From an uncultured Candidatus Saccharibacteria bacterium (lineage in GTDB: Bacteria > Patescibacteriota > Minisyncoccia > Minisyncoccales > Staskawiczbacteraceae), in assembly GCA_964355995.1 (NCBI GenBank), contig CAYHFP010000001.1, positions 1-26,324 of the forward strand: a stretch of 26,324 bases of DNA, written 5' to 3'. Positions within the stretch are counted from its first letter, which is position 1; every line of letters starts with the position of its first letter. Both the position numbers and the translations under genes were made by a program. Below, one piece after another: positions 3,890 to 7,260 of this stretch. Below the pieces are notes generated by a model, which worked only from the letters and a program-made list of their open reading frames with translations, ran no database searches and was not told where the DNA came from.

Positions 3890-4094
3890 TTTCTTTTAAA
3901 TCATGGTCGGGGAAATATAAAATTGATAATCCAACTATAATACCAATTAGTGCTGACCAAAGGTGAAACCCCCCAAAAATCCACTGATCAAGAGCATCCA
4001 ATACGTGCCATATCCCCCGCCAAATCAAAACCAGACCAATAACTATAAAAATATTTTTTGTGAAATAGTTTAGCGTTAATTTATTTTTTTTCAT
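3876..4094 (-). CDS. Small two-TM hypothetical membrane protein
   Basis: IVIGLVLIWRGIWHVLD and a second hydrophobic helix. Confidence 0.7.
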   Translation of the reverse strand: MKKNKLTLNYFTKNIFIVIGLVLIWRGIWHVLDALDQWIFGGFHLWSALIGIIVGLSILYFPDHDLKEIEKL

Positions 4095-4171
4095 ATTGAT
4101 GATAATTAATTATTTTAATATTACCTTAATTGACGGACTTTGTCTGCCGTAGCTCGCTTCGAAGAGTGAAG

Positions 4172-4231
4172 CCCACCTTCGCTTCCACCGTCGCTAAAGC
4201 TATGGAGAACAAGAAAGCTACGGCGGGTGAG
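4172..4231. repeat. Two nested 30-bp palindromic units, one inserted in the middle of the other
   Basis: Outer cccaccttcgct[...]aaagctacggcgggtgag; inner tccaccgtcgctaaagctatggagaacaag (4184-4213). Confidence 0.7.
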
Positions 4232-4233
4232 AG

Positions 4234-4325
4234 CGGAGGGGGTGGGAGTCGCCCGATGATGAACATCGGGCGTCGGGTGTTCATCACCCGACGAACCCAT
4301 CGGACCTTTTTTAGTCGTAGTTTTT
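4234..4325 (-). pseudogene. tRNA-Ser 3' half copy with a 42-bp insertion in the T-loop
   Basis: Minus strand: aaaactac-gactaaaaaaggtc-cgatgggttc[42 bp]gactcccaccccctccg. Confidence 0.7.
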
Positions 4326-4337
4326 CTAGCATCAAAG

Positions 4338-4386
4338 CGGAGGGGGTGGGATTTGAACCCACGAGACCCTTGCGAGCCACGGTTTT
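4338..4386 (-). pseudogene. tRNA-Ser 3' half (long variable arm, T arm, acceptor strand)
   Basis: Minus strand: aaaaccgtggctcgcaagggtctcgtgggttcaaatcccaccccctccg. Confidence 0.75.
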
Positions 4387-4399
4387 CCTAGCCTCAAAG

Positions 4400-4483
4400 C
4401 GGAGGGGGTGGGAGTCGAACCCACTTAACCTTCACAGGTCGTAGTTTTCGAAACTACTGCACCAGCCATTATGCGCCCCCTCC
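4400..4483 (-). tRNA. tRNA-Ser(CGA)
   Basis: Acceptor ggagggg/cccctcc, G73, anticodon arm gtagt-tt CGA aa-actac, long variable arm, T arm gtggg-ttcgact-cccac; CCA not encoded. Confidence 0.9.
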
Positions 4484-4513
4484 GCTTTAGTGCTAGGCGA
4501 AACTATTCCACTA

Positions 4514-4804
4514 GGGGCAAGAAACAGAATTAAAACAAATTTTAGAATTCAAAAAATGAGATGATTTCAAGGCGAAGCGAGTCAATGTAGCTTTAGACTA
4601 CATTTACGAAGCTTTAACGCACCTGCCTGCCGGTAGGCAGGGAAATCAGCCATTTTTTGACTTCCCTTTGGGCGGGTAAATTAAGGCAATCTTCGGCGTT
4701 ACTTCAGAGCGAACGATACCTATGGCATCAAATTCGCTCCTTGTGCCTTGAATCTTGCCTTAATTTACTACCGCTAAAATTGTTGTAATTCTGTTTCTTG
4801 CCCC
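4514..4804. mobile_element. 291-bp MITE-like structured element interrupting a tRNA-Ser D-loop
   Basis: Perfect 19-bp terminal inverted repeat ggggcaagaaacagaatta (4514-4532) / taattctgtttcttgcccc (4786-4804), two long internal hairpin arms, no ORF. Confidence 0.75.
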
Positions 4805-4825
4805 AGGCCACTCTGGCACCCCTCC
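4805..4825 (-). pseudogene. tRNA-Ser 5' end (acceptor strand plus first half of D arm)
   Basis: Minus strand ggaggggtgccagagtggcct, continuing after the element as tagtggaatagtttcg (4513-4498). Confidence 0.7.
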
Positions 4826-4844
4826 AAGATTCAAAGTTATTATT

Positions 4845-5594
4845 CTATATTTCTAACAATAACGGAAAATGGTCTGACCCATATGGACGCAAAGAAACAC
4901 GACTGGATTTAACCTTAACCGTCAGTGGAACTAAAATATAATCAAGCTGAATGGGGAATTTCCAAAAAGTAACTTGGCGGTAAAAACAATTTTTTAAACT
5001 ATATTCGCTTAATAATTTTGCTAAATTTTTGTTTTCGTTAATGATAATTTCCTGCCGTTTATACCCAAAGTATTTCCACAAAAAGATATTGACCAATGGT
5101 TTGCCAAAAGTATTAAAATCACCACAAATAATATTTTTTCTTTCTGGGTCTAAGTGGTCAAGCACTTCTTTAAGTTGAGCCAAACGGTGGTTTGGTCCCG
5201 TAAAACAACGAAAATGCGTATTAAAAATTCTAAATAACCCGCCAAAAGTATCAATGTCCACATAAAATGAATCGGCTTGAAAATGATGGTAGCGATCTTT
5301 GGATTTAATAGACGTATCGCCATAAGTTTTTTTGTGCGGAATAATCACCTGCTCTTTTATAGGAAAACGAGAAAAAATAACCGAGTAAAGCTTTGTTGCC
5401 TCTTTCTTTTTATTTTTAGGAATATGCACTTCGTCGCAAATGGCAATGTGCCCACCTAAATTACGGAGTAAATCAATATGAACTGCCGGAAATTCTTGCA
5501 AACAAACAACATCGGCATTTTGTTTTTTTAAAAACTCAATGGCTTTATTAATGTCTTTATTATTTTTGTAGATATTCCACGTTAAAATTTTCAT
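4845..5594 (-). CDS. Endonuclease/exonuclease/phosphatase (EEP) family protein
   Basis: LTWNI, DVVCLQE, NTH, ICGDFN, LDYI, SDHFP motifs. Confidence 0.92.
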   Translation of the reverse strand: MKILTWNIYKNNKDINKAIEFLKKQNADVVCLQEFPAVHIDLLRNLGGHIAICDEVHIPKNKKKEATKLYSVIFSRFPIKEQVIIPHKKTYGDTSIKSKDRYHHFQADSFYVDIDTFGGLFRIFNTHFRCFTGPNHRLAQLKEVLDHLDPERKNIICGDFNTFGKPLVNIFLWKYFGYKRQEIIINENKNLAKLLSEYSLKNCFYRQVTFWKFPIQLDYILVPLTVKVKSSRVSLRPYGSDHFPLLLEI

Positions 5595-5598
5595 AATA

Positions 5599-6096
5599 TT
5601 ACCAAATCAATTGGAGAATTAAAAAAGTGATACCTGCCACCCCAACGCCCGCCAAAATATCACTGGGCCAGTGGACTCCACAAAAAACTCTAGATAAACA
5701 AACCAAAAAAGTTACAAAGGTAAAAATAATGGCTAGCGGAAGATTAAATAGGAATAAGGCAAAAGAAAAAGCAAAAAAGAATGAAGAGTGACCCGAGGGA
5801 AACCCAGGGTGGTAGGGTTTTTTAATCAGTGAATCAATACTTAAAACTTCCAGTGGCCTTTTGCGTTGATAAAATAAATAAATAATTTCGTTAATAATAA
5901 ATCGGGCAAAAAAACCGGCAAAAACCGGTATAAGAAATACTGGCCAAAAGTTAATAGTATAAGCAAAAATCGCCAAAATAACTATCAAAATATACGCCAA
6001 ATATTCAGCGCAAAATATAGCAAAAAAGTCCAATATTTTGGATTTTTTTGACAGGCCATTAATTAAGTTAAATAGGTATAAATCTAAATTTAACAC
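5599..6096 (-). CDS. PAP2-family phosphatase (undecaprenyl-diphosphatase-like)
   Basis: RKRP, FPSGHS and SRVFCGVHWPSD motifs with TM helices. The start (GTG 6096) is uncertain. Confidence 0.88.
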   Translation of the reverse strand: MLNLDLYLFNLINGLSKKSKILDFFAIFCAEYLAYILIVILAIFAYTINFWPVFLIPVFAGFFARFIINEIIYLFYQRKRPLEVLSIDSLIKKPYHPGFPSGHSSFFFAFSFALFLFNLPLAIIFTFVTFLVCLSRVFCGVHWPSDILAGVGVAGITFLILQLIW

Positions 6097-6192: not shown

Positions 6193-6753
6193 CTAGGGGG
6201 TTAAAGACAGAACCTTTCGATAGATAGACTCCCACGACCGCACTAATTGGAAACGAGGATGAACTGAATCCTCAACAGGCATGCCAAAAGGAATAAAAAG
6301 AAACAAATTGCTCACAGCGTTAACTAATGGCCAAAGCTGAGAAGGCTTTTTAGCGATGAAAACATCAAAATCAGTAAAATACTCTGGCTCAATTTTTCTG
6401 TTTTCCACGGCGATGAAATTGAGATTAATGTATCTCTCGTAGCACCATTCATGGACAACTTTTTGACCGGCCTCAGACCGCAAGGTCACTGCAAAAAGTT
6501 GATGCCCATCGCTTTTTAACCGCCCCAAATAATAAAGCACACTATCAAACAGATCCAGCATCAATCCATTTTCTCTGGTCTCATAGACTCTTTCCTTTAG
6601 AGCAATGTATCCATCACGTGAGAGAAAATCATTGCCACGATCAATTCTTCTTAAACTTTTGCGATATTTCTTTCCTAGCAATCGCCAAGCAACATCTTCC
6701 TTTGCCCTACTACTATCAACAAAAACACCATCAAAAACAAAAGCAATTTTCAT
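6193..6753 (-). CDS. HAD-fold, 5'(3')-deoxyribonucleotidase-like protein with degenerate motif I
   Basis: MKIAFVFDGVFVDS (DxDGV-like), AVTLRS (motif II-like), VRSWESIY C-terminus; AAGGGGAG RBS before ATG 6753. Confidence 0.55.
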   Translation of the reverse strand: MKIAFVFDGVFVDSSRAKEDVAWRLLGKKYRKSLRRIDRGNDFLSRDGYIALKERVYETRENGLMLDLFDSVLYYLGRLKSDGHQLFAVTLRSEAGQKVVHEWCYERYINLNFIAVENRKIEPEYFTDFDVFIAKKPSQLWPLVNAVSNLFLFIPFGMPVEDSVHPRFQLVRSWESIYRKVLSLTP

Positions 6754-6885
6754 ATGGCTCCCCTTAATTGGAAAGGTACAGGCTAGTTTCTTTAAAAAGC
6801 ATATCAAAAAACTGAATAAATAGCAAAAAAAATCCCCCGTTGCCTTTAGCAACTAAGGGGATTGATCAGGTCTGTCTTTTAACTT

Positions 6886-7260
6886 TTACAGCCTGCTACG
6901 TTTTGGCTTTTTCGCAAAAAGGAATTGGCAATCAAAACTCCATCCATCTTGAGCGCGCACCCAATCTTCCAAGACTTCAATTTCTTGTACACGATTCAAA
7001 TTTAAAATAAATGTTCCAGGGAAAGATCCGTATTTTGCTGGACCATTACCTCTAAGGCCAAAAGCCACAATAAAATTTCCTGGTCCCGATAATGAAAAGC
7101 GAGAAATTTGAAAGGTCTCAAGTTCACGTCGAGAAACTGGCCGAAGCCATCTTCTCTTCATAGCTCGCTCAATCATTAAATCAGTTAATTTCAGATCTCT
7201 TTTACCAGGACGAAAAGTTAAAAGAACAAATCTTCCAAATTTCTCTTCTATGCATCGCAT
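6886..7260 (-). CDS. Hypothetical protein
   Basis: 124-aa ORF with AAGGGGG RBS and a downstream hairpin near 6830-6863. Confidence 0.6.
   Translation of the reverse strand: MRCIEEKFGRFVLLTFRPGKRDLKLTDLMIERAMKRRWLRPVSRRELETFQISRFSLSGPGNFIVAFGLRGNGPAKYGSFPGTFILNLNRVQEIEVLEDWVRAQDGWSFDCQFLFAKKPKRSRL

Follow-up and report, generated by a model that had tools for sequence, protein, structure and literature searches.

A tRNA-Ser gene nested within a twice-interrupted tRNA-Ser(CGA) gene of a groundwater bacterium, and a family of putatively mobile tRNA-carrying cassettes

The stretch of DNA analysed here (the window) comprises 26,324 nucleotides, positions 1 to 26,324 of contig CAYHFP010000001.1, which is contig 1 of assembly GCA_964355995.1 of an uncultured Candidatus Saccharibacteria bacterium that GTDB places in the Staskawiczbacteraceae. 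The source genome (G000; other G-numbers denote its relatives) comes from groundwater and is 679 kb long, with 36.6% GC and a completeness of 98.9%. The bacterium belongs to the Patescibacteria, and genomes of its order bear NCBI labels such as Parcubacteria group. On the minus strand of the window, positions 4825-4338 are a tRNA-Ser(CGA) gene that is split twice, once in its D-loop by a 291-bp element and once in its anticodon loop by a 111-bp cassette, and the cassette itself contains a second, intact tRNA-Ser(CGA) (Table 1). The segment boundaries that an earlier reading of the bare sequence (the original prediction) had assigned to the minus strand between 4825 and 4234 proved correct to the base on direct reading of the sequence.

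The anticodon insert (4387-4497) consists of a 14-nt arm, the intact inner tRNA and a complementary 13-nt arm. The arms pair at 12 of 13 positions in a helix that continues the acceptor stem of the inner tRNA, which agrees with the predicted 111-bp insert at anticodon position 35/36 whose base-paired flanks extend that stem; the insertion point is ambiguous by one nucleotide (35/36 or 34/35), because a G is present at both junctions. ARAGORN calls the inner tRNA as Ser(CGA) at 4399-4483, and the Rfam tRNA model matches 4400-4483 with 43.9 bits against a gathering threshold of 29. A cloverleaf with a long variable arm, the G73 and an Rfam score above threshold give it the features of a functional bacterial tRNA-Ser, and it is the sole Ser(CGA) gene that ARAGORN finds in the assembly. 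On the unedited locus, both ARAGORN and Rfam report this one tRNA only.

When positions 4514-4804 and 4387-4497 are removed, ARAGORN recognizes an 86-nt tRNA-Ser(CGA) with one A.C mismatch in its anticodon stem; substitution of a third tRNA-Ser 3' half that lies downstream (4325-4234 without a 42-nt palindrome) yields an ambiguous call with an 8-nt loop. The serine cloverleaf with an imperfect anticodon stem that had been foreseen for the sequence without its inserts is therefore recovered. This reconstructed outer tRNA shares 90% identity with the intact gene of the congener G004, 88% with the intact gene of G019 and 87% with the outer gene of G015, and its 3' half is 84-93% identical to the 3' halves of congener tRNA-Ser genes. 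On this comparison, identities of 90% and 88% to two intact genes lie far beyond chance, and the outer gene is a genuine orthologue of the intact tRNA-Ser(CGA) genes in congeners. The outer gene is preceded, at a distance of 16 nt, by a TAGAAT box, and TAGAAT is also found upstream of the orthologues in G015 and G019; a scan of the interval between the outer 5' end and the inner tRNA found no promoter-like site. The TAGAAT box is the presumed promoter of the entire precursor, inner tRNA included.

The minimum free energy fold of the 488 nt from 4338 to 4825 (minus strand) is a cloverleaf nested in a cloverleaf (z = -12.5), as expected from the earlier suggestion that both inserts are self-pairing and leave the outer tRNA foldable around them. 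The arrangement is not an artifact of assembly. Logan contigs from two groundwater samples bridge all junctions with zero differences, and an independent 1770-nt ENA contig that covers 4050-5819 is identical over the whole locus, its six differences all lying outside. These contigs exclude the misassembly that the original prediction had named as its own refutation. The single alternative joint among the Logan contigs is a tRNA-Ser(GGA) of another organism and not an empty allele.

Table 1. Features of the nested tRNA-Ser locus (positions in the window)
Feature	Position	Strand	Remarks
Candidate -10 box TAGAAT, upstream of outer gene	4842..4847	minus	Read from sequence; overlaps stop codon of upstream open reading frame
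Outer tRNA-Ser(CGA), 5' segment	4805..4825	minus	Acceptor 5' strand, D-stem 5' strand, start of D-loop; matches intact G004 and G019 orthologues
Structured palindromic element in outer D-loop, 291 bp, without open reading frame	4514..4804	minus	29-nt terminal inverted repeats
Outer tRNA, remainder of 5' half	4498..4513	minus	D-arm 3' part, anticodon-stem 5' strand, loop through anticodon nt 35 (TTTCG)
Cassette left arm (L), 14 nt	4484..4497	minus	Pairs with right arm; prolongs inner acceptor stem
Inner intact tRNA-Ser(CGA), 84 nt	4400..4483	minus	No encoded CCA; ARAGORN and Rfam
Cassette right arm (R), 13 nt	4387..4399	minus	Pairs with left arm
Outer tRNA, 3' half	4338..4386	minus	Anticodon nt 36 onward, variable arm, T-arm, acceptor 3' strand, G73
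R-like trailer (R') after outer 3' half	4326..4337	minus	One mismatch to R over 12 shared nt; inside 62-nt tandem period
Third, degenerate tRNA-Ser 3' half, inner type	4234..4325	minus	T-loop split by 42-nt palindrome (4251-4292)

The congeners were compared by means of their tRNA-Ser(CGA) genes with a common upstream terminator hairpin, those of G018, G024 and G041 also adjoining DUF4446-infB; the neighborhood of tRNA-Ser(CGA), DUF4446 and infB recurs across the order. An uninterrupted allele in relatives, which the original prediction had proposed to seek, is present in G004, G018 and G019 in the form of an intact outer-type gene. G015 carries both the D-loop element and the cassette, each at the same nucleotide as in the source genome, and its outer gene and the intact gene of G019 share 94% identity; the disruption in G015 is therefore recent. 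G014 retains the cassette of G015, with an identical inner tRNA and with arms that differ by one compensatory pair, and its outer gene lacks the 3' part of the D-arm and the 5' strand of the anticodon stem and bears a further insert in the T-loop. In G024 (L172, c2185-2269) there is a lone tRNA-Ser(CGA) of the inner lineage; a GCTTT trailer follows it, no outer shell is visible around it, and this locus looks like a completed replacement. Compared side by side, the congeners display empty, filled, eroded and replaced states of one locus.

The inner tRNAs have separate affinities. That of the source genome is 85-87% identical to the tRNA-Ser(UGA) lineage of the genus (85% to the tRNA-Ser(UGA) of its own genome), with an anticodon arm that resembles the outer type, and is only 67% identical to the inner tRNA of G015. 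The inner tRNA shared by G015 and G014 is 80% identical to the inner tRNAs of other families and 65-67% identical to the tRNA-Ser types of its own genus. Therefore, the two cassettes either entered independently or swapped cargo with a resident paralogue.

Related cassettes are found well beyond the genus. A strict search pattern (AAAGC, a tRNA-Ser, GCTTT) located the cassette in 3 of the 26 genomes of the genus and in six further genomes, from five other genera, among 401 sampled from the order. In five of these six, tRNA-Ser shell remnants surround the cassette; the exception is G221, in which a GIY-YIG open reading frame (ORF) and a 23-nt 5' tRNA fragment lie upstream of the arm-flanked tRNA. 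A scan of all species with a 17-nt junction pattern gave mostly chance matches and was used only after filtering; among the matches listed, the cassette also occurs in metagenome-assembled genomes labelled Portnoybacteria, Parcubacteria, Paceibacterota and Nomurabacteria. All cases save G221 have an intact tRNA-Ser (UGA or CGA) between homologous arms (consensus CCCCGTA..GAAAGC / GCTTTC..TACGGGG) within tRNA-Ser shell remnants. In the tabulated cases the 5' flank always ends in YG, that is, anticodon nucleotides 34-35, and the 3' flank often resumes with T-Y-G-A and a stretch of A. Erosion of the outer shells varies in extent, and they often hold further small hairpins in the D- or T-loop, some of them with CCCCGTA...TACGGGG ends. 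Outside the search pattern the arm helix is seen in essentially all matches, with 92% of cells paired and nine pairs with double changes, and its covariation score was reached by 0 of 500 shuffles; this is not proof of RNA function, because inverted repeats can correct each other via hairpin-templated repair. At 14 nested loci the only recurrent neighbors are the housekeeping genes DUF4446 and infB, and no enzyme gene recurs.

We put at roughly 70% the probability that the locus results from a DNA-level invasion by a non-autonomous cassette, in which the outer halves are relics in decay and only the inner tRNA works, probably via the outer promoter. A resident, functional tRNA-Ser(CGA) gene would have been split between anticodon nucleotides 35 and 36 by the hairpin-ended 111-bp cassette and, in a separate event, a 291-bp palindromic element of a dispersed family would have split the outer D-loop. 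Because the inner tRNA lacks a promoter of its own, it would probably be transcribed from that of the outer gene within a precursor of roughly 500 nt, to be freed by the ordinary tRNA end-processing enzymes and then given its CCA, while the outer halves would never be rejoined and would go on decaying. The R-like trailer and the third 3' half would be explained most simply as leftovers of an earlier round, in the manner of a Russian doll. Of the two options that the original prediction had left standing, one was a decayed gene rescued by an element with a replacement tRNA. The congener states and the cassette family speak for an element that carries a replacement; the order of events was likelier the reverse, in that an element that broke a working gene and brought the spare is more likely than the rescue of a decayed one. 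The source genome has a tRNA-Ser(UGA) gene, and tRNA-Ser(UGA) can normally decode UCG by wobble; therefore, even a transient loss of Ser(CGA) may be tolerable, which may be the reason for this gene being a safe landing site.

The mobility of the cassette is something we infer from comparison of sequences, and several observations weigh against the account just given. The cassette arms are single-copy in the source genome. There is no target-site duplication at the G000 cassette, and relatives have only irregular repeats of 3-5 nt, such as TYG and TCTCG. No transposase, integrase or nuclease is linked to the G000 cassette. In the Logan contigs there is no joint that would correspond to an excised form or to precisely this gene without its insert, and metagenome contigs gave no match to the exact empty-site junction. 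A single-gene tree of translation initiation factor IF-2 does not settle whether the cassette-filled genomes are sisters, and with it whether their insertions are shared or independent. Hairpin-templated repair between the inverted repeats, rather than selection, could yield the covariation of the arms. Finally, the presence of the D-loop element at the same nucleotide in G000 and G015 could mean an old inherited composite, which fits poorly because the inner tRNAs are only 67% identical, unless their cargo was exchanged. Of two further scans, one for the first 27 nt of the cassette matched the source sample alone, and one of viral contigs for the junction of left arm and tRNA gave chance matches in coding DNA only and no sign of phage carriage.

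The 291-bp element in the D-loop belongs to a family of its own. Its 29-nt terminal inverted repeats are 93% complementary, its fold is exceptionally stable (z = -13.5), it contains no ORF, and Rfam searches at E<=10 gave chance matches only. The family has roughly 30 homologous copies in about ten congeners (as read from the hit list), mostly intergenic and outside tRNA genes, with a conserved core and outer arms that are variable yet complementary; the consensus structure has 106 pairs, 51 of them with compensatory changes. A 20-nt palindrome (CCTGCCTACCGGCAGGCAGG, ~4621-4640) is present in the G000 copy and absent from eight other aligned copies, and stretches of 21-24 nt that overlap it recur exactly in many congeners. 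The D-loop elements of G000 and G015, although inserted at the same nucleotide, are only ~69% identical, and a second G015 copy matches at 81%; the shared site could be a hot spot or an old shared insertion. On contig C56 of G003, a Y1_Tnp-like ORF (6365-6814) lies 72 nt upstream of a copy of the 291-bp family (6886-6998), an arrangement that is a possible link between this family and an IS200-like transposase. Identification of the element as a cyanobacterial-type miniature inverted-repeat transposable element (MITE) in a cyanobacterium was also considered and was dropped in view of the genome size and the relatives.

Three tRNA-Ser 3' halves stand in succession with a 62-nt period, and the degenerate one at 4234-4325 is probably what is left of an older, outermost shell that has lost its 5' half. 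The palindrome in its T-loop (window 4251-4292) belongs to a family of ~42-nt palindromes in the T-loop (GGTTC^GA) of tRNA 3' fragments, which is also seen in the source genome at C9:~820-870, C30:7508-7553 and C34:171-211. In G001 (L020), a partial copy of tRNA-Ser(GGA) has a different double hairpin at this T-loop position. On contig C9 of the source genome, 10 N (745-754) separate a complete tRNA-Ser(GCU) from a duplicate of its T-arm and acceptor end; this duplication needs checking because it is placed on a scaffold gap. In G015 (L009, minus strand), a second copy of the final 17 nt of the tRNA (AAATCCCACCCTCTCCG) occurs ~200 nt past the outer 3' end, beyond a structured insert of ~190 nt; this is a small T-loop element that copies the tRNA 3' end. 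Two ORFs of the window, 4126-4380 on the minus strand and 4130-4444 on the plus strand, coincide in part with the tRNA fragments and palindromes and can almost certainly be dismissed as spurious.

The alternative that survives best, itself unlikely, involves no mobile element: the nesting would go back to a local duplication, to gene conversion between tRNA-Ser paralogues or to template switching on tRNA DNA, which is quasi-palindromic, and would then have descended vertically. It would account for the 85% identity between the G000 inner tRNA and the tRNA-Ser(UGA) of the same genome, for the outer-like anticodon arm, for arms that are single-copy in the source genome and for a locus of tRNA-Ser, DUF4446 and infB that is conserved across the order. 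It does not accommodate homologous arms whose inner tRNA and outer tRNA both differ from one family to another; moreover, the G015 inner tRNA is foreign to the genus, and congeners have intact empty sites whose genes are 94% identical to a filled outer gene.

A slim chance, about one in ten, may be granted to a second alternative, in which tyrosine-integrase elements (islands or prophages) repeatedly integrated by crossing over in the anticodon loop or T-loop and then decayed, stacking partial tRNAs as scars. The three successive tRNA-Ser 3' halves with their 62-nt period would be natural products of such a history, and the anticodon loop and the T-loop are reportedly (Williams 2002) the classic places of crossover within tRNA genes. 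The arm ends of relatives, if circularised, would form a palindromic core-like ACGGGG-TCTCG-CCCCGT, and in G015 the 17-nt direct repeat of the tRNA 3' end flanks an insert of ~190 nt. Against these stands the form of the insert, which is a whole tRNA between inverted arms and not a direct repeat of a 3' part, and which has matching outer halves on its 5' and 3' sides. An integrase could hardly use a double-stranded circle of 111 bp as its substrate, the sole tyrosine recombinase of the genome (PF00589) lies on contig C38, and none of the 14 nested loci examined has a larger parent element. Neither an attL/attR direct repeat nor a recombinase gene inside the element was found.

Very improbable is the other option of the original prediction, a processed precursor that restores the outer tRNA. 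The whole 4825-4338 transcript would be spliced, both inserts removed and the outer halves ligated to give two tRNA-Ser(CGA), by a bacterial tRNA splicing of a kind other than group I. The predicted nested-cloverleaf precursor presents the inserts as self-contained helices, the reconstructed outer tRNA still scores as a tRNA-Ser, the arms covary, and the outer halves remain well conserved when set beside intact orthologues. However, G014 has deleted essential parts of the outer tRNA while retaining the cassette, the outer shells of other families are eroded and carry further insertions, the outer anticodon stem has an A.C mismatch, and the D-loop element is a generic dispersed element that occurs outside tRNAs. 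The machinery is also missing from view. EndA (PF01974) and RtcB (PF01139) are absent from the 98.9%-complete genome, with positive controls, which also rules out an archaeal origin or splicing of the bulge-helix-bulge (BHB) type; no group I intron was matched in 4100-4950 on either strand by Rfam at E<=10, and neither insert matches a known RNA family in the gathering or E<=10 modes of Rfam. The insert does sit at the anticodon-loop site of group I introns, and has neither their catalytic core (P3-P9) nor their length of at least ~200 nt, being 111 nt long and itself a tRNA; nor, as G014 and the eroded shells elsewhere illustrate, is the host tRNA kept functional across relatives as in BHB systems. 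Restoration of the outer tRNA was not borne out, and processing is probably limited to cutting the inner tRNA from a long precursor.

That several tRNA-Ser genes of the metagenome were joined in an assembly chimera has a negligible probability: tRNA-Ser T-arms are common to many community members and read depth spikes at 4317-4378, but exact contigs of two samples bridge all junctions, the independent 1770-nt contig is identical, and a homologous nested cassette occupies the same outer site in G015 and G014, with the D-loop element also in G015.

Several known systems share features with the locus. Tyrosine-integrase elements, namely prophages, islands and integrative and conjugative elements, enter tRNA genes at the anticodon loop or T-loop (PMC8371274). 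They resemble the cassette in targeting the anticodon loop, in that the incoming sequence preserves a working tRNA and in that displaced relics can stack; in contrast, the cassette supplies a whole tRNA and not a 3' part, has inverted arms, measures 111 bp, carries no integrase and destroys the resident gene. Group I introns occur in bacterial tRNA anticodon loops (bioRxiv 10.1101/2020.01.27.920355) and share with the cassette this insertion site in a bacterial tRNA, a sporadic presence among relatives and the coexistence of empty and filled alleles. Unlike them, the cassette has no ribozyme core, and function is supplied by the second tRNA in the insert and not by a host restored through splicing. 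MITEs, REPINs (with RAYT) and palindromes derived from IS200/IS605 are likewise free of ORFs, with complementary inverted or hairpin ends, a site preference and mutual nesting; the cassette differs in being single-copy, in its functional tRNA cargo and same-tRNA-species target, and in having no clear target-site duplication or linked enzyme. Measured against MITEs in particular, it has terminal inverted repeats and no ORF, and at the G000 copy there is neither a target-site duplication nor a second copy in the genome. Archaeal tRNA genes can be disrupted by multiple introns, split or tri-split, and their introns can transpose (PMC2650326; PMC4390854; PMC3293823). There, too, several positions are interrupted by short helical inserts of mobile appearance, and complementary flanks could hold halves together, but those genes need BHB motifs, EndA and a ligase and give a functional host tRNA, whereas here the host tRNA decays. 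The closest known systems are thus integrase elements in principle, group I tRNA introns in position and MITEs or REPINs in form, and the locus fails the defining tests of each.

If the favored reading of an invasion by a non-autonomous cassette is correct, an enzyme acting in trans would mobilize the cassette, and the candidates are a Y1/HUH IS200-like transposase acting on folded single-stranded DNA or small GIY-YIG nucleases near tRNA genes. The Y1 candidate would suit an insertion, after a short target, into tRNA DNA that is single-stranded and folded. The Y1_Tnp-like ORF of the source genome (contig C7) is borderline (23.5 bits against a cut-off of 23); its homologues occur in 15 of the 26 congeners, including all three cassette carriers, an association that is not significant. 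As for the nucleases, the source genome has seven small GIY-YIG ORFs, several of them beside tRNA genes and none at the cassette locus. Free-standing GIY-YIG enzymes drive intronless or collaborative homing, as is reported for T4 SegB in a phage tRNA cluster (Brok-Volchanskaya 2008; Zeng, Bonocora and Shub 2009). The likeness lies in nuclease ORFs beside tRNAs (in G000, and in G221 by the arm-flanked tRNA-Ser) and in empty and filled alleles, and an insert that breaks the target of the nuclease would be copied by repair; the difference is that no GIY-YIG gene adjoins the G000 cassette, and none recurs among the 13 other nested loci that were inspected. In G221 (L035, 1157-1605, sense strand), a GIY-YIG ORF and a small palindrome follow nucleotide ~23 of a tRNA-Ser(GGA), with a 23-nt 5' copy upstream and the complete arm-flanked tRNA downstream, and the same design is seen at a tRNA-Cys on contig C51 of the source genome (3931-4310, minus strand). 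By its layout, this arrangement appears to be a 5'-end-copying nuclease cassette at the D-loop.

A bolder proposal, for which we hold the odds to be even, is that arm-tRNA-arm represents an undescribed and still-active class of bacterial mobile element, with a tRNA as its sole cargo, which inserts itself into the anticodon loop of the resident gene of the same amino acid specificity, seizes its promoter and serially overwrites tRNA genes with the help of an enzyme in trans (Y1/HUH or small GIY-YIG), with Russian-doll shells left behind. Such an element may recognize its target as single-stranded, folded DNA. If true, the result would be a minimal gene-replacement drive of the "break it and bring the spare" type on the core translation genes of ultra-small bacteria.

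Genes for tRNAs are thought to be among the most stable of bacterial genes, and to our knowledge group I introns provide the only other examples of interrupted tRNA genes in bacteria. In the literature on tRNA introns of the candidate phyla radiation (CPR), on nested or interrupted tRNA genes and on tRNA integration sites, we found no published description of a tRNA nested in a tRNA in bacteria. The G000 locus stands out by its D-loop element, by what may be a third shell and by congeners that cover the full series of stages, and it is useful because these congeners keep the empty, filled, eroded and replaced stages. It makes a tractable subject in the search for a small, site-specific machinery of insertion, one that recognizes the tRNA anticodon loop in DNA. 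For annotation, it implies that the tRNA catalogues of reduced CPR genomes will hold hidden relic halves and chimeric calls. More generally, the cassettes would represent another route for selfish DNA into an essential gene, namely to destroy it and to supply a full replacement that uses the old promoter, and the tRNA genes of reduced CPR genomes can, on this evidence, turn over by replacement rather than by point mutation.

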